Of a stretch of DNA of 41,110 nucleotides, positions 21,651 through 38,238 are shown in pieces. The stretch's first letter is position 1. Each line of letters opens with the position of its first letter. The notes beneath the pieces were generated by a model. The model ran no database searches. It was not told where the DNA came from and worked only from the letters and a program-made list of their open reading frames with translations. Made by a program: the position numbers and the translations under genes. This stretch comes from Escherichia phage smaasur, in the sequence record MN850625.1, one strand, 5' to 3'.

Positions 21651-22099
21651 TCGTTATCCCACTCCGGCTCGTACTTAACTACACGTTTCATATTGACGCT
21701 ACCCACCACACGCAATACACGGGCAGTGCAGCCGTACGTTCTGGCCAATCTCTCAGCCTCGCGCCGCGCCGACTCTTCCGTAGTGTGCTCAACCTTCGGC
21801 GGCGTAGAGCCACCTACAACTACGCACATGAACCTGCCCCGGCTCGGCTCGGCCACAGGTTCAGGCTCGCCTATCAGCACGGTGTTGGAGGTTAGCCAGT
21901 CAGATTTGTAGCGCCCTATCTCCGGCTCCGTTCTGCGGTATCCGTTCTCTGACATGTACCAATGCACGAGGTATTTGATATCACCTTGCGGAGCATCTGG
22001 CCGTGCATAAATTACAATGCCTTCTGAGCCACGGCGCGTACCACAGTTGGAGCCAACCATTCGTATGCGGTCGCCCATTGCATAGGTCTTATCTACCAT
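21647..22099 (-). CDS. hypothetical protein with N-terminal GDRIR motif (small paralogous family)
   Basis: 150 aa; begins MGDRIRMVGSNCGTRRGSEGIVIYAR, paralogous pattern to the genes at 19309..19662 and 24363..24626. Confidence 0.5.
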   Translation of the reverse strand: MVDKTYAMGDRIRMVGSNCGTRRGSEGIVIYARPDAPQGDIKYLVHWYMSENGYRRTEPEIGRYKSDWLTSNTVLIGEPEPVAEPSRGRFMCVVVGGSTPPKVEHTTEESARREAERLARTYGCTARVLRVVGSVNMKRVVKYEPEWDNE

Positions 22100-23862: not shown

Positions 23863-24024
23863 ATCGCTACCCTCTCATTAAATAATACTCGTGGTGCATG
23901 TAGTGACCGCCGAGATACACCGCCCGGCTGAACAGGTTGGGGTTGCTCGCCCCACCCAGCGCACAGTAACCAGCGTACGTTATCTGATTAGCGTGCGCAT
24001 TGTACGTGCTGCCGCCCATGCTCA

Positions 24025-24360
24025 TCACTCCCGCTCAGCTATGCCGAACAGATACATGTCGCCAGAGTACACTGTCGTCATGGTCGCCAGCCATTGCTGC
24101 ATGATGCGAACGCTCGCATTGAAGTGCTGGTCATTCAGCAGGTCAATGATAAACGGACGGCCACCAGCGTACGCCTTGACTCGCTCTATTATCTGCTGGT
24201 CAGTGGCATCCTCAGCAGTGAGGTGATGCCCCATGATTTCAAACTGGTTGAATACAACCAGACCTTCGCGGCCATCAGGCAGGAGGTAGACGAAAGCCAC
24301 AACGTGCTCGCCATCCTCAAAGTCCTTGCCGCGTTTGATGAGTACCTTGTGAATGGCCAT
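24025..24360 (-). CDS. hypothetical small protein
   Basis: 111 aa ORF; start abuts the upstream stop at 24363. Confidence 0.45.
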   Translation of the reverse strand: MAIHKVLIKRGKDFEDGEHVVAFVYLLPDGREGLVVFNQFEIMGHHLTAEDATDQQIIERVKAYAGGRPFIIDLLNDQHFNASVRIMQQWLATMTTVYSGDMYLFGIAERE

Positions 24361-24362
24361 AC

Positions 24363-24626
24363 TTACTCCACTTCGAAGTCGCCGTCGTCGTCGTAGCCGT
24401 ACCCCAGTACGCCAGCCAGTTCGCCGTTAACACCTTCGGCCTGCGCCTCATCAAACAGGACGATGAAGTCATCATCATCGGACGCCAGACCACGGTACAC
24501 ATCTGCATCCGGGTGCGCATCGAATACAGGCAGGCTCTTACCAGTATCGCCACGGTACACGACCACACCTACAGCGTTGCCGAACCATCTTGACTTAACG
24601 CGCTGACCTAATTCTAATTTGCTCAT
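24363..24626 (-). CDS. small acidic protein (N-terminal GQRVK motif, Asp-rich C-terminus)
   Basis: Start placed at ATG 24626 (MSKLELGQRVK), which has a GAGGA ribosome-binding site. C-terminus DDDDFIVLFDEAQAEGVNGELAGVLGYGYDDDGDFEVE is strongly acidic. Confidence 0.5.
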   Translation of the reverse strand: MSKLELGQRVKSRWFGNAVGVVVYRGDTGKSLPVFDAHPDADVYRGLASDDDDFIVLFDEAQAEGVNGELAGVLGYGYDDDGDFEVE

Positions 24627-26837: not shown

Positions 26838-27369
26838 AGTTATTTCTCCAGTTATTGGCTATTTTCAGGTGGATAGTGAACCCATTGTGACGCGCCGTAC
26901 AGTCTGCACTCAGTGGCATTGATTGGCTTGTCGGATTCACTACCCTGAAAAATCGCCCCGCCCATTTCGCGCTGTGGATATTGTCTGCATCCACTCTCAG
27001 GAGTCTTCCAGCAGTCCGTCGCGTATCTTGCTCACCGTTGCCAGCTAACAAGCCGTTTGACTACCCACCCGCTATACTCCGCGCCTTATAAGACGTTCGG
27101 GATTGTACTGATACTGCGCTGCGTCTATCGCGCTTCTCCGTTCCCATGCACCGGGCGCTACCCCTATTGCCTTTCGGCGGTGCCTCACCCAGTTCCAACC
27201 TGCGGCGGATACCCAGTGAGCCGTGACACTACGCGGCCAGTTTGCGTTCACTCAGAGCAGGATGCTTTCCATCCTTTCAACTCGGTGCTGATTTCATCAT
27301 ATCTGAATCAGCTTGTCAACTACTTTTTACTTCTGACTGACTGGCTTGCTACCCGTCAATCTGGAGCGT

Positions 27370-27398
27370 ATTACAGCATACTCATTTCACCTTGTCAA
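27370..27398 (-). promoter_or_regulatory. candidate host sigma70 early promoter (minus strand TTGACA-17-TGTAAT)
   Basis: On the minus strand: TTGACA (plus 27393-27398), exact 17-nt spacer, TGTAAT (plus 27370-27375). Points toward the early genes. Confidence 0.5.
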
Positions 27399-27506
27399 CC
27401 GTTTTATTCAGCGCCCATTCTGAGATGAATAACCCGTACCAGTTCGCCTGCGTGTGTTTTAACGTCTTTATCAATGACTGTTTAGCTTGCTGGCTGACGT
27501 GGAAGC

Positions 27507-27535
27507 ATTACAGCATAGTGAGCTTGCCTTGTCAA
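27507..27535 (-). promoter_or_regulatory. candidate host sigma70 early promoter (minus strand TTGACA-17-TGTAAT), second copy
   Basis: Same architecture: TTGACA (plus 27530-27535), 17-nt spacer, TGTAAT (plus 27507-27512). A weaker third candidate is TTGACA (27313-27318) with TGAAAT (27290-27295). Confidence 0.5.
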
Positions 27536-27779
27536 TACACTCCAGATTGTTAAAGAGCATGGCTAACCGTCTAGCCCACCGTGTAACGATGTTCTGTTAC
27601 CCGGCGATGAGAATTACAGCAAATCACAAAGAGCATTGCAAGTATTATTTTCACTGAATACCTCAAATAGTGGATAAGTTATTGTATTCATTGATAATAA
27701 ATATTTGATTGAATAGGTTATTGCATAGCTTACATACAGCAGAATAACCGTAAATAAATCCTTTTAAATCAATGAGTAA

Positions 27780-27794
27780 ATGAAAGTAACTGTT
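27780..27794 (+). repeat. repeated element ATGAAAGTAACTGTT (copy 4, inverted, at the edge of the T-depleted terminus tract)
   Basis: Exact 15-mer on the plus strand, opposite to all genes; 18-nt identity with copy 1 (ATGAAAGTAACTGTTGTG). Sits at the junction between an AT-rich segment (27640-27780) and the T-depleted tract. Confidence 0.6.
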
Positions 27795-27799
27795 GTGTA

Positions 27800-28380
27800 T
27801 AGCAGTAGCGATACGCAGCGTAAGCGACGCAGCACGCAGTGCGATAGCGGAGCGCGGAGCGGAGCGAATGAGATACGGAGTAGCGAATGAGTGAACGCGA
27901 ACGGATAGCAAGTATCAGAGTGTTACACAGTACACACAGCAGACACACAGCGACGCGATGAGCTGGAGGAGCTGGAGCGCAGGCGGTAGCGCACAGAGTA
28001 CACCGTACACAGTACCGCACAGACACACACAGCAAGCGAGCGCAGGCAGCAGCAGCAACGCACAGAGCAAGCGAGCAAAAGAGATAGATAGCCCCGCGCC
28101 CAGCCACCGACACACAGCAGCACCGCACAGCACAGCGCAGGCCAGCGCAGGCGCGTCCAGTGGTAGCAGTGGCGCAGCGCACAGCAGCAGGACACAGCAC
28201 CGCACAGCACGCCACACGGCAGACGATGAAACGGGCACGCGCGAGCTGTTACCGCACGCACGCGAGCAATACCGCACGCGCAGGCACACGCGCATAATGC
28301 GCACACGTCATGCACGCGCACGCGCACAGGCGTACGGGGGCGCAGGCGCTCCTTCGGGTCGAGGGAGGCCCACGCACAAA
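27800..28380. repeat. strongly T-depleted, degenerate short-repeat tract at the presumed genome terminus
   Basis: Plus strand is almost entirely A/C/G with reiterated CACAG/GCGCAG/CAGCAC units; my hand count gives about 8% T over 27841-28380, and 28021-28080 has none. Lies between the last late gene (endolysin, ends 28435) and the early promoters, where T7-like phages carry terminal repeats and short-repeat arrays. Confidence 0.6.
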
Positions 28381-30693: not shown

Positions 30694-32453
30694 TAGCGGA
30701 TTCTCCGACGAGTGCCACGGACACGCTTATGACTGCGCCACTTCGAGTCGTCGTACCCCATAGGGTTGGCAACAAACTCACGAGCGGCGGCCACTTCACG
30801 CTTTTGGGCCTCTTCATGTTCGTCTTGCTGGAGTACCTCGGCGTGGAGATACACGGCAGCGGATAGGGTTTCAATGCGGTCATCGTGCGGGATGGAGCCT
30901 TTGTCCTGCGTCAAGTTCTGCATCTGCCAGAACAGGCTGTATTCCCGGCCACCGTTGTTCATGGCCCGGCACAGGCGCAGGTCTTCCTCAACAACCGACC
31001 AGTGGATTACCACGCGGTGGCGCTGGAGGATAGGACTCAACCGATTGATGATACGCACTTCTTTCTGGCCGCTGGAGTAAATACCCTCACAGCCGATTGT
31101 CAGTCCTTGACGCTTAATCTCACCACGGTACATGTTGGTCACGGCACCGTGGCCCATGTTGTCCTCAATGGTGATGTGCTGGACACCCAGCTCGTGGCAC
31201 CACTCTACCGCCGCCTTGATGTTCTCTTCCGTCTGGCCGCCGTGGTAGACGTGCATACCGATGACGTGGATAAACGGGCCGATAGAAGCTGTGGCGAAGA
31301 GAACGGATTCGTCCGACCCACCACCAGCAGGGTCAAGAAACGCCTTGGTATTCGTGAATGGTACATACGTCTCAGAGAAGTCAGCGGCCAGATATAGCTG
31401 GGCGCGAGCGAGTGGGAAGTCCATTGGCAGCTCGGCCAAGTGACGCGAATGATTCGACCAGTGCAGATACTCCGGCGCAGACTGCGGCGAGCCGTGGAAG
31501 AAGATAACATCCCGGATATGCAGAGTCTGTTTCAGTGCGTCTGACAGTGATGTGTCCAGCATGAACTGTAGCTGGAAGCCTGCCTGCTGGTAGTCTCGTT
31601 CGTTCTGTAGCTGCTTCTCTTCGGAGTAACGCTGAGGGTCAGTCTGCGCACCACGGTTCCCAAGGATACCGTAACCAGTACGCAATTCAGGGTGGCCATC
31701 CATCTTCTGCTTAATCCACGGGGCCAGACAGCCGCCGTAGCGTTCTTCTTCCTCAACCGTTGGGAAACGACCGGGCCAGATGCGAACGTCGAAGCCACGC
31801 TGCGGGAGCGTGTTGTAGATGGAGTCCTGAGTCTGTGGCGTGCCGAGGTACAGAATCTCTGCACCGTCGTTGGCGATAGCCGCGAACTCTTTGGTCAGGG
31901 TGTTGATACGGGCGCGGTTGGCAGGAGAGCTACCGTTACTGGTAGTCTCCACGTCATCGGCAATCAACAGCGATACGTGGTTCCCCTGCAACTGGCCGAA
32001 GATACCGACCGCTTTGACAGAGGGCTGTTTGTCAGGAATACGAAATGCGTGGTGTACGTCGAAACCGTCTGTATAAGAGGTACGTGCGCCAGCGCGAGTT
32101 TCAGGGCGCAGCCATTCCAGTCTGTCCCATTGCATAATGGCAGACACGATGGCGTGCGAGAGCGTACCCGCATAATCGTCAGAACCGGATACCAGCAGCA
32201 CGGTGGCGTTAGGCATCTGGACGAACTCATACAGGGCACGGGCAATGCCGATGGTGGACTTAGCCTCACCGCGCTGAGCCATGACGCACTTGTTCTTGAG
32301 CGTCCGGTCGGCCATGTAGCGGCCAATATCGAGCTGCATTTCAGTGAGGTCAAAGCCCAGCCATGCGAAGTAGTCATGCAGGAACAGCGGGAAGTTGTTC
32401 TCGTAATGGGCGCGAACAATTCCTGCCATCACCATGCGGCGTTGTAAATCCAT
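30693..32453 (-). CDS. terminase large subunit (T7 gp19-like)
   Basis: 586 aa, the same length as T7 gp19. [26 protein letters not shown] matches T7 [45 protein letters not shown] matches [32 protein letters not shown] matches ALAHDDRLDALALGI. Confidence 0.95.
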   Translation of the reverse strand: [586 protein letters not shown]

Positions 32454-32743
32454 TAGTGCATCATCCCGCTATCTTCTGCAATTGCTTTGATGGCAGAGTC
32501 CATGATGGACTTCCGCTCCGTATCCGACTTCTCTTTGTTGAGCTGCTCTTGCAGCGCCAGCAGGTCGTCGGCGTGGTCAGCATCTGCTTGGATGCCATTG
32601 TCTTTCAGGAACTGGCGAAGTACCGACAGCTCGGCTGCTGGCATTGGCTCGTTACCGGGCTTCATGCACTCAGACAGCCGAGTGGTCAGATACTCAACCA
32701 GCATCCGGTGCAGCCCATCGAGCTGCTTATTCACGGATGCCAT
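32453..32743 (-). CDS. terminase small subunit (T7 gp18-like)
   Basis: 96 aa helical protein immediately upstream of and overlapping the terminase large subunit start; T7 gp18 is 89 aa. Confidence 0.6.
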   Translation of the reverse strand: MASVNKQLDGLHRMLVEYLTTRLSECMKPGNEPMPAAELSVLRQFLKDNGIQADADHADDLLALQEQLNKEKSDTERKSIMDSAIKAIAEDSGMMH

Positions 32744-32752
32744 GATTACTCC

Positions 32753-35137
32753 TTAGATGAATGCGACCGGGTACGTGGCGGCGAGCTGAGTACCTGCCGG
32801 AATCGCAGTTACGATTGCCGGACTGATATCAATCCGCACCGGGTTCCCGATGTTGTTGTCTACCTGATACGGCGCTCGCGTCACAGTGACCGTAAGCGTA
32901 CCGCCACTTGGCCCAGCGCCCGGAATGTTCAGGCGAGTACCAGCAGAGATAGGCTTATGATACAGCCACGAGGTCGAGGCTTGAGTACCTTTCGGGGTCA
33001 GGTTCTGCTCCAGATACGTCTGGCCAGCGGCAGCAGCACGCACCTTGAAGTTGTTGCCGTCATTCGGGATGTAGGCACCGAACCGGGTCACAATGAAGTT
33101 ACCACCCGTGCCGTCCGTCTTGAACAGTACCGTACCTTCGCAGAACTCTTTACCAGTAGGGAACTCCCCACCAGTCAGGGTTGCGAGGTCGTTCGGCAGT
33201 GTGTACATGCGGTTGACCGGAGACAGGATAACGCCGACGTTGCCTTGGATGTTAGTGTACGGAATAGCACGTACGTTGGAGTTCAGCGTACTGATATCCG
33301 AGTAGCGAGCTTTACTGTACAGGGCACCCTCGGTGTTGCCGGGGCCGTAGAAGTTCACGTTCACCATGTTCAGGCAGGTCTTGCGTCGCGGGTACACGCC
33401 GTTGGAGGACGTACCGCCGCTGGAGTCATCGCCTACACAGTCGAAGTCAACACCCGTCACGTTGGTCATGTTCAGGAGTGTGGCCACACCAAAGAGGCTC
33501 AGACGGTAGCAGTGGATGTTCTCAAGGTGGTACACGTTGGTGTTCACATCATCGGAGCCAACACCAGCGTAGACACGCCCGGTCTTGGTGTAGATGTTGC
33601 GCAGCGTCATGTTGAACGATGGGTTGGATGCACCCGGCACGCCACCAGCACCAGCTTGGTTAGAACCCCACTCGCACATGACAAGACGTACCGCAGCCGG
33701 GTCAGTACCAGTGCTGCCAACGATAGGCTCACCGTACACGCCGTCAATGACAATATCCTTGCAGCCGTAGGTGATAACGCCAGCAGCCGTCAGACCTGTG
33801 CCGTTGGAAACAGTCAGGTCAGGGTTGGCATGTACGTCGTACACCGTGCAGTTCTTGGACACCTCGAAGTGGATAACCTGACGCACCCCACGCGGAGCAT
33901 GGACACCACGGACTGTGATGTTCTTCGCGTATTGGGTTTCAGCAGCATCCCAGCCAAACGGCCCTTGACCAGCCAGACCAATCCCGATACCCCAGTTGGA
34001 TACGAAGGATGGGTTGGAGGTTGGGTTGATACCGTTGATATTTTCGAGGTAGATGTTCTCAATCGACAGGCCACCATCATAGTGCTTGTTGATTACGTTC
34101 ATCTCAATGCCGTCGCCAGCCATATCCATCAGGGCGATGTTGCGAATCACACCGTTGTCAATGGTCTCGCCAGTACCCTGCTGGAGAATGCCGAAGTAAC
34201 CATTACGGTGTACTCCGTTCTCGATGACATAGCTGCCCCCGGCGATGTTACCTTGGAACAGGATGCTGGCAACTTTCGATGCCGAAGGGTGGTCAGTGAA
34301 CTCGTAGTCAGCAATGCGCACATTGCCGCCCCAGTAGCAGACACGAACCTTTGATGCAGAGAAGTTGCGGAACGTAGCATTCAGCAGACGGATATCCGCT
34401 GTACCGTTCCACGTACCGCCGACAACCTCAATGCCGTCCATAGTGATGGTGGAGTTCACAGTGCCTTCCCAACCGCGAGCGTCCACAACCTTGTTGTTGG
34501 CTTTGGCGTAGTCGAAGCAGGCTTGGCACGCAGCGGCAATAGAGGCGTAGCCAGTGTTGTTGGTGAACTCAGACAGGCAGACGGTATCCTGACGGTCGAG
34601 GAACGTGCCACCGCCGAGAGTACCAATCCACTTACCGCCGTCATTCATCGCCAGCGCGATGGCCAGCGCAGAGTCAGGAATATCGACCAGCGGCACCATG
34701 AAGGGTTGGCCATTGCTGTCGAAGCCCAGCGCCTTGTTACGGCGGCCTGCGACGTTAGGCAGTGCGTTGATTGACACCTCAGAGTTTGGTACGCGCAGGG
34801 CGCGGTCAAGCGGAGCCAGCCATGCTTCCTGCGTCTCTTCTGCCTTGAAGAGAATCTGCTCAAAGTTCTCGTCGAGGTTGCTGCCAGTGAATGCAGCGTC
34901 CTGACCGAACTTGTTCAGCAGCACTTCTGAGGTGTACCGTTGGAGTCGGACAATCACCCCGGCGAGCGGGGCGGTGTCAAATACGATTTGCTTGGTCACG
35001 GAGTTGTAGGTGTACCCGCTCGTCTGGAGTTCGGAGTTAAGGTACACCTGAATCTGCGTGAACACTCGTTGTTCAAAGGTGACAAGGAACGCGGTCTGCG
35101 TTCCGTTTGCCACGTATGCGTTGTAGCTATTGGCCAT
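32753..35137 (-). CDS. tailspike: T7 gp17-like N-terminal anchor fused to a right-handed beta-helix (pectate-lyase-like) depolymerase domain
   Basis: 794 aa. N-terminal ~120 aa follow the T7 tail-fibre anchor pattern. Central region is rich in Gly/Asn/Val/Thr repeats typical of parallel beta-helix polysaccharide depolymerases. Follows the internal virion proteins. Confidence 0.7.
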   Translation of the reverse strand: MANSYNAYVANGTQTAFLVTFEQRVFTQIQVYLNSELQTSGYTYNSVTKQIVFDTAPLAGVIVRLQRYTSEVLLNKFGQDAAFTGSNLDENFEQILFKAEETQEAWLAPLDRALRVPNSEVSINALPNVAGRRNKALGFDSNGQPFMVPLVDIPDSALAIALAMNDGGKWIGTLGGGTFLDRQDTVCLSEFTNNTGYASIAAACQACFDYAKANNKVVDARGWEGTVNSTITMDGIEVVGGTWNGTADIRLLNATFRNFSASKVRVCYWGGNVRIADYEFTDHPSASKVASILFQGNIAGGSYVIENGVHRNGYFGILQQGTGETIDNGVIRNIALMDMAGDGIEMNVINKHYDGGLSIENIYLENINGINPTSNPSFVSNWGIGIGLAGQGPFGWDAAETQYAKNITVRGVHAPRGVRQVIHFEVSKNCTVYDVHANPDLTVSNGTGLTAAGVITYGCKDIVIDGVYGEPIVGSTGTDPAAVRLVMCEWGSNQAGAGGVPGASNPSFNMTLRNIYTKTGRVYAGVGSDDVNTNVYHLENIHCYRLSLFGVATLLNMTNVTGVDFDCVGDDSSGGTSSNGVYPRRKTCLNMVNVNFYGPGNTEGALYSKARYSDISTLNSNVRAIPYTNIQGNVGVILSPVNRMYTLPNDLATLTGGEFPTGKEFCEGTVLFKTDGTGGNFIVTRFGAYIPNDGNNFKVRAAAAGQTYLEQNLTPKGTQASTSWLYHKPISAGTRLNIPGAGPSGGTLTVTVTRAPYQVDNNIGNPVRIDISPAIVTAIPAGTQLAATYPVAFI

Positions 35138-38100
35138 TATTCGCCCTTAACTGCTTCGTTGAGTGCTCGGACACCCGGCACAATGGAAATGAGTGGGAGT
35201 GCTTGTATGATGTTACCAGCAGTCTTGCGAGCATCATGTACAGCTTGGTCTGTGTCTCCAGTCAGCAAGTCGCCAGCCGTCGCAGTAGCAGAGCCAGCAA
35301 TACCGTACATGCGGTCAAGGAACAGCAGACCCGGCGCACCAAAGCTGCGCTGCTGTCCAGTCAGGACACCAGTGAACTCGGAGGCGAAGCCAATGGCACC
35401 GAGATAGTTCAGTGCTTGGCCAGCCAGCGCACCAATAGGTCGCTTATCATCAAAGCCCTTGCCAGAGATAACATTGTTCGCAGCCGTAGCCATCATCGCC
35501 AGCGGATACTGGTAAGCCATAAGCGTAGCCATCCCACGGGCACCTTCACGGTTCCAAGTACCCACCAGCGTCTTGTTGTGCGTGGCCGCTACGAAGCGAC
35601 GGAACGTAAACAGGAACTTACCGAGGGTACTGAACTCAGCGAATGCAGGCAGCTCGCCCACACGGGCGCGTACGATAGCGTCATCCATAGCGTTCATCAT
35701 AACAATGCGGGAGCGGTTGAATACGCCCTCATCCCACGCATCCGGCTTAGTCCCGGACTTGGCCACTTCCTTGCGGATATCAGCCAGCAGCGCATCGTTA
35801 GCGCCATACGTCTTCATTGCAGCGATAGCCTTCGCATCACCCTCAGCAGCCTTACGCAGCGTCTGCATAACCAGTGCGGCGTTGGTGCGGGTCTGGTGGA
35901 AGTGGATGTATTTCTGCATGTTGATGAACATCGTGGCATCACGTACGTGCTCAAGACGCATAACCCACGGAGACTTATCCGCAGAGAACATATCTTCATA
36001 GTGCTGCAAGATAGGACGCATACGAATATCACTCGCCACAGCAGCCGTAAGAGCTTCCTCAGTGTCGAGAGCCAATTGGCGTCCCTCCGCAGTAGATGCT
36101 CGCATCTGCTTAAATAGTGCGCGTGCTTCTGGAATTGTACGCATCATGGCGCGAAATGTATTGACCGCCCCGAAACGCTGCATCATCGTACCGTATTCGA
36201 CCAACTGCCACAAACCAGAAGCAGCCAAACCAGTGGCCTGAGTCAGTGCAGAGAGTTGTCGCATGAACTGCGGCATCTCTTCACCTACTGGCGCACCCAA
36301 GTAATAGCTGATGATGTTGTCGTATTGGTCGAGAGCCTGACGACGTGCAGTACCGTCCGGGATAGATTTGGCCAGAGCCTCACGAGCTGCTGCGCGTTCG
36401 GCGTCAGTACCCAAACCAGCCTCATGCAGAGCCAGCCGCCCCGTAATGCGACGGTTATAGCTGTCCATCATGCTGGCGATGCTGTCATCGAACAGGTCAC
36501 GCACCTGCAAGTTAGGGCCGAGCTGGTGCATCATATCAATGTTGATACGCGCTTTAAGCATTGGCGCTCTACCAGAATCCTCTCCGGCTTCACGAAGGAG
36601 TGCTGACGCACGGGCCTTGGCAGCCTCGTCGAATCCCTTCGCGTTGTTGATAATTTCGAGCAGCTCATCGCGGCCCTCCTTGTTGATGATATGGCCGGAG
36701 TTGTCGATACCGTAACCTTTACGGCGAGCACGCTCTACCATCGCATGTGCAATGACGTTGGCAGTGGGGCGGTCAGAGCCGATACCACGCTGGACAGCGG
36801 TGGTCATCTGCTTCATGAATGCTTTCTTGCCAAGCAGTTGCTCAGCCTGCTCAACTTTGGTCACGTTCATCCGGCGCGGGTAGTAGTACGGGTTCTTCTC
36901 GACGAAGCCCGGCTCAACCATACCCTTACGCTCCAGCTCCCGGCCCACGGCGCGAGAGTATTCGCCCAGTCTATCAGCAGCTTGTACCACGTTAGCATTG
37001 GCCCCTTTGAAGTTAGGGTCAATCATACGCCTGTCCAGCTCAAGTCGAACTGCTTGCTCGAACTCCTGCTGAGCACGGCGATAACCAACCGGGTCAAGGA
37101 ATCGACGCACGTTAGTCCAGCCGTCAGTATTCAAGGCGTGACGTAGGGTGTCCTCATACTGATTCAGCAGCACGCCAAAGCGAGCCTGAGTCTCACGCTG
37201 AATAGACGCAGCGGAGGTCATGTTGGGATTCAACGGGTCATCCAGTAGGCGTCCTGCGAGAGCACTGGATTCGTCGGAGTGCTGGCTGAAAGTCTTGAAC
37301 AGAGACCACTCAAGGAATGGGCGTTTGGGGTTTGTCTGCTCACCACGGCGTGCAAGGTCAAGACCGCGCTGTGCGGTGGCTCGGATAGACTCAGGAACCT
37401 CATCCACCTCCATAGCGCCACGACGACCACCGAAGCCCAGCGACATAGCCAGCGGAGACATAGCATTCTCCGGGTCGAACTGCGGTGGGTTGTTCGGGTC
37501 AATGCCATTGCGACGTTGCATCTCCGCTGCAAATTCCTCCGGCGACATATCGGCCAGCGAGCTCTGTACCGGAGCCGGGCGATAGAATGCAGTGGTGGCC
37601 GCCCCGTGCAGGGCAGCCGCAAAGATGATTTCGTTCTGAGACACTGGGCGTGCTTCATTACCCACCGCTGTCATAGCAGCAGCAGTTGAAGCTGCACCGA
37701 CAGCGGCGGTTCCAAGGCGACCAAGTTTCAGGGCAGTGCCTGCTCCCATCGAGAGCAGGTCGGTGGCGAGGTACAGCGGGTCAGCGAATTGCAGAACCGC
37801 GTTCATCACCGGGGCAGTGTGAGCCAACTGAGTACGCTCGCGCATCTCTTGGAGCTGCTGCGTACGCCAGTTGAACTCATCCATAGATTTGGATTTAAAC
37901 AGGAAAGTTCTGTCGTCTTCACCAATCGGGAACTGAACCTGCTGCAACGCCTCGTTGGGCTTGAAGTCAGGGTCAGCCTGAAAGGTAGGCTTGTTGAAGG
38001 CGGCATCAAAGAGCTGAGTGGTGTCCCAGTTCTTCACAGAAGCGCTCAACGCCGTGGCAATTGGAGTGGCTTCCAGTTCCTGCATCTTTTCGAACTGCTC

Positions 38101-38238
38101 GACGGCACCCTGACGAGTGGCACCTTGCAGTGGAGTGCTGAGCGTCTCAGCTTTTACGGGAGCTGGAATCACCAGCGTAGGGGCGTTGGCCCCCTGCTTG
38201 GGAGCCATGAACTTGTCTAGCGATTCTTGTGTAATCAT
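35137..38238 (-). CDS. internal virion (ejection) protein C, T7 gp16-like by position
   Basis: 1033 aa, the largest protein, between the 898-aa internal virion protein and the tailspike. Ala/Gly-rich segments in the C-terminal third. Confidence 0.6.
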   Translation of the reverse strand: MITQESLDKFMAPKQGANAPTLVIPAPVKAETLSTPLQGATRQGAVEQFEKMQELEATPIATALSASVKNWDTTQLFDAAFNKPTFQADPDFKPNEALQQVQFPIGEDDRTFLFKSKSMDEFNWRTQQLQEMRERTQLAHTAPVMNAVLQFADPLYLATDLLSMGAGTALKLGRLGTAAVGAASTAAAMTAVGNEARPVSQNEIIFAAALHGAATTAFYRPAPVQSSLADMSPEEFAAEMQRRNGIDPNNPPQFDPENAMSPLAMSLGFGGRRGAMEVDEVPESIRATAQRGLDLARRGEQTNPKRPFLEWSLFKTFSQHSDESSALAGRLLDDPLNPNMTSAASIQRETQARFGVLLNQYEDTLRHALNTDGWTNVRRFLDPVGYRRAQQEFEQAVRLELDRRMIDPNFKGANANVVQAADRLGEYSRAVGRELERKGMVEPGFVEKNPYYYPRRMNVTKVEQAEQLLGKKAFMKQMTTAVQRGIGSDRPTANVIAHAMVERARRKGYGIDNSGHIINKEGRDELLEIINNAKGFDEAAKARASALLREAGEDSGRAPMLKARINIDMMHQLGPNLQVRDLFDDSIASMMDSYNRRITGRLALHEAGLGTDAERAAAREALAKSIPDGTARRQALDQYDNIISYYLGAPVGEEMPQFMRQLSALTQATGLAASGLWQLVEYGTMMQRFGAVNTFRAMMRTIPEARALFKQMRASTAEGRQLALDTEEALTAAVASDIRMRPILQHYEDMFSADKSPWVMRLEHVRDATMFINMQKYIHFHQTRTNAALVMQTLRKAAEGDAKAIAAMKTYGANDALLADIRKEVAKSGTKPDAWDEGVFNRSRIVMMNAMDDAIVRARVGELPAFAEFSTLGKFLFTFRRFVAATHNKTLVGTWNREGARGMATLMAYQYPLAMMATAANNVISGKGFDDKRPIGALAGQALNYLGAIGFASEFTGVLTGQQRSFGAPGLLFLDRMYGIAGSATATAGDLLTGDTDQAVHDARKTAGNIIQALPLISIVPGVRALNEAVKGE

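Follow-up and report, generated by a model that had tools for sequence, protein, structure and literature searches.

The tailspike of Escherichia phage smaasur very probably joins a T7 gp17-type anchor to a colanic-acid-degrading beta-helix and shares a core with host WcaM

The tailspike gene and its parts

The genome sequence of Escherichia phage smaasur (MN850625.1), analysed here as one window of 41,110 bp, carries on its minus strand a gene for a tailspike of 794 amino acids (aa). A reading made from the letters alone (the sequence-only reading) had placed this gene at 32753–35137 and had proposed a T7 gp17-type anchor followed by a beta-helix polysaccharide depolymerase. We recovered a single ATG-to-stop open reading frame (ORF) with exactly these boundaries, and the proposed architecture was borne out by the profile phrog_6117, by homology to gp150 of phage phi92, by a Foldseek match to the PDB entry 6E0V and by a profile of the anchor. 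Overall, the protein is very probably the single spike of a Bonnellvirus podophage, in which the anchor is joined to a beta-helix endo-glycosidase acting on colanic acid. The gene is of an already known kind, having been described for phages J8-65 and NST1 and as gp150 of phi92. Its parts are listed below, where pLDDT stands for the predicted local distance difference test score of the AlphaFold2 model.

32753..35137, minus strand: tailspike colanidase gene, 794 aa plus stop (ORF; phrog_6117; identity to J8-65 and NST1; ratio of non-synonymous to synonymous substitution rates, dN/dS)
34688..35137, minus strand: T7 gp17-type N-terminal tail-attachment (anchor) domain, aa 1–150 (PF03906 below cut-off; phrog_11393; HMMER homologues; profile match to T7 gp17)
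34646..34687, minus strand: short linker between anchor and enzyme, aa 151–164 (start or end of homology to differently anchored spikes; pLDDT <50)
32756..34645, minus strand: colanidase module, aa 165–794, homologous to phi92 gp150 residues 30–621
33428..34495, minus strand: right-handed parallel beta-helix body, aa ~215–570, preceded by a capping helix at aa 200–213
34094..34117, minus strand: motif G-D-G-I-E-M-N-V, aa 341–348, six of its eight positions invariant; carries D342 and E345
33863..33865, minus strand: E425 in the motif R-Q-x-x-H-x-E, the third invariant acid (alignment; gp150; WcaM)
32756..33385, minus strand: C-terminal beta domain or domains, aa ~585–794 (AlphaFold2 secondary structure, pLDDT ~62–97; aligns to the gp150 C-terminus)
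32817..34401, minus strand: central cassette that is replaced in the Lidtsur allele, aa ~246–774 (blastn of the window against Lidtsur; protein identity per block)

The gene differs from its J8-65 orthologue at 107 nucleotides, which change just 14 amino acids (dN/dS = 0.053 by the Nei–Gojobori method), and by this comparison it is a real, functional gene under strong purifying selection. An antisense ORF of 663 aa (32363..34354, plus strand), lying over the tailspike gene and the neighbouring small terminase gene, was rejected in view of the strong purifying selection on the gene opposite. It had no match in a PHROG search and, given that the annotated J8-65 genes all lie on one strand, most likely represents a spurious shadow ORF within coding DNA rich in GC.

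The enzymatic module belongs to the colanidase family

By sequence, fold and conserved motifs, the tailspike is a member of the colanidase family. The profile phrog_6117, annotated as colanic acid degradation, matched aa 84–793 with an expectation (E) value of 1.5e-239, and the protein shares 98.2% identity with the tailspike colanidase of J8-65 (AIM40542 / YP_009101389; Bonnellvirus J865) and, over 794 aa, 86.8% with the colanic acid-degrading protein of NST1 (GenBank HM214492). The NST1 protein is a full-length homologue, 95.9% identical over the N-terminal 146 aa, and is known in the database from its spike gene only, not from a genome; the enzyme was reportedly described by Firozi et al. 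in 2010. In a search against solved structures, aa 162–794 aligned with residues 30–621 of phi92 gp150 (6E0V/6E0W; E 9.5e-65), which the PDB lists as a colanidase tailspike. This protein shares ~30% identity with the smaasur spike, comes from a myovirus and has a different, short N-terminus without a T7-type anchor. A Pfam search of the whole smaasur protein with a Pfam copy that does not include PF27800 returned no beta-helix, pectate-lyase or colanidase family, and the closest tailspike homologues carry PF27800.

The fold was assessed with an AlphaFold2 model of the monomer built on 29 homologues, which had high pLDDT over most of aa 190–794. It showed the capping helix at aa 200–213, a long run of short strands over aa ~215–570 and a C-terminal beta domain at aa ~585–794, an arrangement like that of the gp150 crystal structure, and a Foldseek search with the model returned 6E0V as its top match (E 1.6e-33). 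Tailspikes in general are trimers, and the smaasur protein would by analogy be a homotrimer. Homology to members with measured colanic-acid-degrading activity extends over the whole module.

Three acidic residues, D342 and E345 (G-D-x-I-E-x-N-V) and E425 (R-Q-x-x-H-x-E), were invariant in 29 of the 29 homologues and were also kept in phi92 gp150. On the strength of this invariance they are most likely candidate catalytic or substrate-binding acids. The same 29-homologue alignment contains an invariant P-G-A-G-x-x-G-x-x-L motif at aa 739–748 of the C-terminal domain. The 14 substitutions relative to the J8-65 spike are spread along the protein, none of them at D342, E345 or E425.

A fibre or adhesin that binds the cell surface without enzymatic activity would be another reading of a spike gene at this position, and the sequence-only reading had named a predicted fibre in place of a beta-helix as one outcome that would overturn its proposal. 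The model shows a beta-helix and not a fibre, the full length of the protein is homologous to enzymes whose activity has been measured, the putative active-site motifs are invariant, and the 98%-identical J8-65 spike is tied to halos and polymer loss (PMC4179555). On this evidence a purely adhesive role is extremely improbable.

The colanidase assignment leaves two chemistries to be weighed, hydrolysis and cleavage by beta-elimination as in a polysaccharide lyase. The recombinant NST1 enzyme converted colanic acid into a species of 1,148 Da, which corresponds to one repeat unit, with the appearance of reducing ends, and is referred to as a hydrolase (PMC9143390), while phi92 gp150 is reported to hydrolyse a glucose–fucose linkage in colanic acid, a linkage that contains no uronic acid (PMC13450770). 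The invariant residues are moreover acids (D, E and E), as expected of a glycosidase. Taken together, these data make a lyase mechanism very unlikely, and by homology we infer that the virion carries, in this tailspike, an endo-acting hydrolase of colanic acid.

Colanic acid as the substrate

Colanic acid (the M antigen) is an Rcs-regulated exopolysaccharide that is common to the Enterobacteriaceae and made by most of them. It is proposed as the substrate of the smaasur spike because this protein is 86.8% identical to the hydrolase of NST1, a tested enzyme, and 98.2% identical to the spike of J8-65. The latter phage came from a screen for colanic-acid-degrading phages, and at the whole-phage level it formed expanding halos on mucoid E. 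coli K-12 and left less high-molecular-weight colanic acid (PMC4179555).

The sequence-only reading had expected a capsule or O antigen as the target and had stated that such module boundaries define serotype specificity. Under that explanation the spike would be a depolymerase for a variable K capsule or O antigen, with a host range limited to a narrow set of serotypes. The endorhamnosidases of HK620, P22 and Sf6, the K1 and K5 lyases and the Klebsiella capsule depolymerases do resemble the smaasur spike at the level of the fold, but their identity to it is 8–16%, compared to 87–98% for the colanidases, and searches of the tailspike against PHROG, Pfam and PDB sequences returned no serotype-specific K- or O-antigen spike family. 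The hosts of the carrier phages point the same way. E. coli K-12 was the isolation host of phages with 86–98% identical spikes, and K-12-derived BW25113 (as well as BL21) is described as lacking O-antigen and capsular polysaccharides except for stress-induced colanic acid. Phages from Enterobacter, Kosakonia and Cronobacter carry spikes that are 91–96% identical. Near-identical spikes (91–96%) across four enterobacterial genera thus fit a shared polysaccharide and not a serotype antigen. A serotype-specific depolymerase is therefore very improbable, although slightly less so than a lyase, and the substrate would instead be colanic acid, which unlike K and O antigens does not vary with serotype.

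The N-terminal anchor is of the T7 gp17 type at the profile level

Sequence profiles place the N-terminal ~150 aa in the family of T7 gp17-type tail-attachment domains. The single tailspike sequence gave a match to PF03906, the T7 tail fibre N-terminal domain, over aa 2–104 (E 7e-5, 23 bits) that is below the 25.2-bit cut-off, and phrog_11393 (tail fiber protein) matched the N-terminus with E 3e-19; PF03906 is also found in the precomputed annotations of the close homologues P0002, P0003 and P0006. With the N-terminal 165 aa as query, a word-indexed protein search gave a single match, and an exhaustive HMMER search with aa 1–165 gave 1140 homologues. Nearly all of the best 150 of these 1140 matched from residue 1–20 of proteins of 133–1079 aa. 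A profile built from 32 N-termini matched, over its positions 1–154, the PDB structure of T7 gp17 (7boz_a; E 5.8e-14), and many N-termini of fibres and spikes from other podophages were matched with E values from 1e-24 to 1e-7, including phiAB6, Kp9, K64-ORF41, a KN1 depolymerase, GP4 Gp44 and P-SCSP1u.

The anchor profile contains a second conserved motif, LRVP..LP..R..LGFD..G.P, at aa 113–146, and the anchor is therefore ~150 aa long and not ~120 aa. Thus, the anchor pattern recognised in the sequence-only reading stood while its length of ~120 aa did not: the anchor ends at about aa 150 and the enzyme starts at about aa 165. Compared to the N-terminal domain of T7 gp17 (PF03906; PDB 7BOZ/7EY9), the smaasur anchor is a homologous attachment domain at the profile level, and the fibre or spike gene occupies the same genomic position across the Autographiviridae. 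The smaasur spike differs from T7 gp17 in having neither its long coiled-coil shaft nor its tip domain, the beta-helix enzyme following directly after the anchor.

Exchange of modules between spikes

The sequence-only reading had suggested that module boundaries of this kind are hot spots of exchange, and had proposed to map them by alignment with related tailspikes. The alignments placed the junction at aa ~150–165, and as judged from them this anchor/enzyme junction is demonstrably a point of exchange. The modularity is confirmed by three independent observations, namely fusions of the enzyme to other anchors, relatives that share the anchor alone and a cassette swap in Lidtsur.

First, the colanidase module is joined elsewhere to P22-type head-binding domains (PF09008) or to TSP1/gp66-type N-terminal domains (PF18668), and these homologues, like phi92 gp150, can be aligned with the smaasur spike only from about aa 162–175 onward. 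Second, the spikes of HHU8 (from E. coli) and of the Bonnellvirus ROV85 (from Pantoea) have an anchor that is 42% identical to that of smaasur, over aa 1–163 and 1–180, respectively, and then continue into unrelated sequence. Their proteins of 776 aa (L003:4495-6825) and 883 aa (L004:4501-7152) have entirely different C-terminal parts, which are presumably receptor-binding heads for other surface polysaccharides. Third, within the genus, the Lidtsur allele is 92–97% identical at the protein level over aa 1–200 and then drops to 35–57% (blocks of 20–40 aa). At the DNA level, blastn similarity to Lidtsur ends at nucleotide 737 of the gene and returns 64 nucleotides before the gene end; the flanks of the cassette share ~81–88% nucleotide identity and the cassette itself is barely alignable. 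The relatives with the NST1-type allele (P0002 and P0003), which are 85–87% identical overall, likewise diverge most in the central beta-helix, with 65–72% identity at aa ~360–520.

Genome context

The window, with a GC content of 55.41%, agrees with the published table entry for smaasur (MN850625: 41,110 bp, GC 55.4%, 93.3% similar to J8-65; PMC7552041). Compared to J8-65, its nucleotide identity is ~96% (up to 96.6%) over most of its length and ~90% in part of the early region. The two genomes are colinear once circularly permuted, the window being reverse-complemented relative to J8-65, and it looks like a complete Bonnellvirus genome in circularly permuted and reverse-complemented form. 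It has both nucleotide similarity and gene order in common with the type phage J8-65, which places it in the genus Bonnellvirus (Autographiviridae); the J8-65 paper itself placed that phage in the phiKMV group (PMC4179555). In sibling genomes from the same study as smaasur, the orthologous gene is annotated as tailspike colanidase.

The tailspike gene lies between the following neighbours.

35137..38238, minus strand: upstream, internal virion protein, 1033 aa (phrog_342, E 2.5e-169; same place in the J8-65 annotation)
32453..32743, minus strand: downstream, terminase small subunit (TerS), 96 aa (phrog_891, E 2.3e-21; matches the J8-65 TerS annotation)

The ATG of the tailspike gene overlaps the TAA stop codon of the upstream gene by one base (TAATG). 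Downstream, the AAGGAG Shine–Dalgarno sequence of the small terminase gene overlaps the tailspike stop codon, the small terminase gene itself begins ten bases downstream of the tailspike gene, and the gene for the large terminase subunit (TerL) comes next. The order of internal virion proteins, spike, TerS and TerL is identical to that annotated in J8-65, whose spike has the same length of 794 aa and the same one-base overlap at its start.

A few small early genes differ between the window and J8-65. Two early-gene patches (21849–22095 and 23874–24624) are without a J8-65 counterpart between flanks that are 90–96% identical, in agreement with a published comment that the differences among bonnellviruses lie mainly in small hypothetical genes (PMC7552041). 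One copy of the 259-bp J8-65 terminal repeat was found at 28102–28362, within a genome-end region (27975–28362) in which it is surrounded by short, degenerate, CA/GC-rich direct repeats of CAGCACCGCACAGCAC-like units. An AT-richer stretch at 27000–28000 (GC 0.479) contains three copies of a 29-nucleotide repeat, ATTACAGCATA...CCTTGTCAA, which might be early promoters. A tRNA scan of the window found none.

Proposed mode of action

In the J8-65 genome annotation, the tailspike gene is the only fibre or spike gene, and the smaasur spike is regarded as the receptor-binding protein because of this annotation in a ~96%-identical genome. By family homology, the N-terminal ~150 aa would dock the spike onto the tail, and, after the short linker, aa ~165–794 would bind colanic acid and hydrolyse it into repeat-unit oligosaccharides, with D342, E345 and E425 as the putative catalytic residues. 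The virion would in this way tunnel through the slime layer to the outer membrane, and enzyme released in free form would spread outward and give rise to expanding halos around plaques.

Several points weigh against this account. The enzymatic activity is known from relatives, and 14 residues differ from the J8-65 spike and ~13% of positions from NST1. No mapping of catalytic residues in colanidases was found in the literature consulted. For the anchor, the single-sequence match to PF03906 stayed below the gathering cut-off of 25.2 bits, and the AlphaFold2 monomer model is unreliable over aa 1–183 (pLDDT 26–66), so that the anchor fold was read from the sequence profile. The J8-65 paper also calls it unknown whether K-12 is a good host (PMC4179555), and colanic acid may be either an obligatory receptor or only a barrier. 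For titration of J8-65, the same paper used mucoid cells at 37 °C or, at room temperature, MG1655, and it lists one K-12 strain as not supporting growth of the phage (PMC4179555). These titration conditions and the non-permissive strain are hints, not proof, of a dependence on colanic acid.

Relationship to the host protein WcaM

The central part of the tailspike, aa 304–467 (33737–34228, minus strand), is homologous to WcaM of E. coli K-12 (b2043; L005:4503-5897), a protein of 464 aa that belongs to the host colanic-acid cluster and is not a virion protein. The NCBIfam model of WcaM, TIGR04004, matched the tailspike over aa 304–467 only (E 1.2e-16), with 60.4 bits against an equivalog cut-off of 794.6 bits, and by this comparison the tailspike is a core homologue of WcaM and not a WcaM equivalog. 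An hhalign comparison of the tailspike core with WcaM gave a probability of 99.4 and 36% identity over 154 columns. The three acids D342, E345 and E425 are kept in WcaM, as is an NWGIGIG loop. A WcaM orthologue (P0032) that is 76% identical to the K-12 protein carries PF27800, the family shared with the tailspike homologues. These resemblances suggest that WcaM may itself act as a glycosidase on colanic acid.

The biochemical role of WcaM is listed only as "putative", and searches of the literature on WcaM returned nothing on its enzymology. The N-terminus of WcaM contains an SRRTF motif that looks like a twin-arginine signal. We tentatively consider the possibility, which we regard as rather doubtful at present, that the phage colanidase and WcaM descend from one colanic-acid glycosidase that was passed between host and phage. 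Pfam already unites the two in PF27800, and only the functional and evolutionary reading would be new.

Implications

The smaasur gene by itself adds little, being 98% identical to one already described, and its value is that of a further natural allele. Compared with the NST1-type and Lidtsur-type alleles, it helps to map where recombination is tolerated in these spikes, at the junction at aa ~150–165 and in the cassette at aa ~246–774. Colanidase spikes have been used for the clean-up of plasmid DNA, for the production of oligosaccharides from colanic acid and, in synergistic cocktails of phages, as the "donor" enzyme. If the common descent outlined above were true, WcaM would be a chain-trimming colanidase of the host, analogous to WceF of Pantoea. 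For the phages, colanidase spikes provide a way through the colanic-acid slime of mucoid, phage-resistant enterobacteria.

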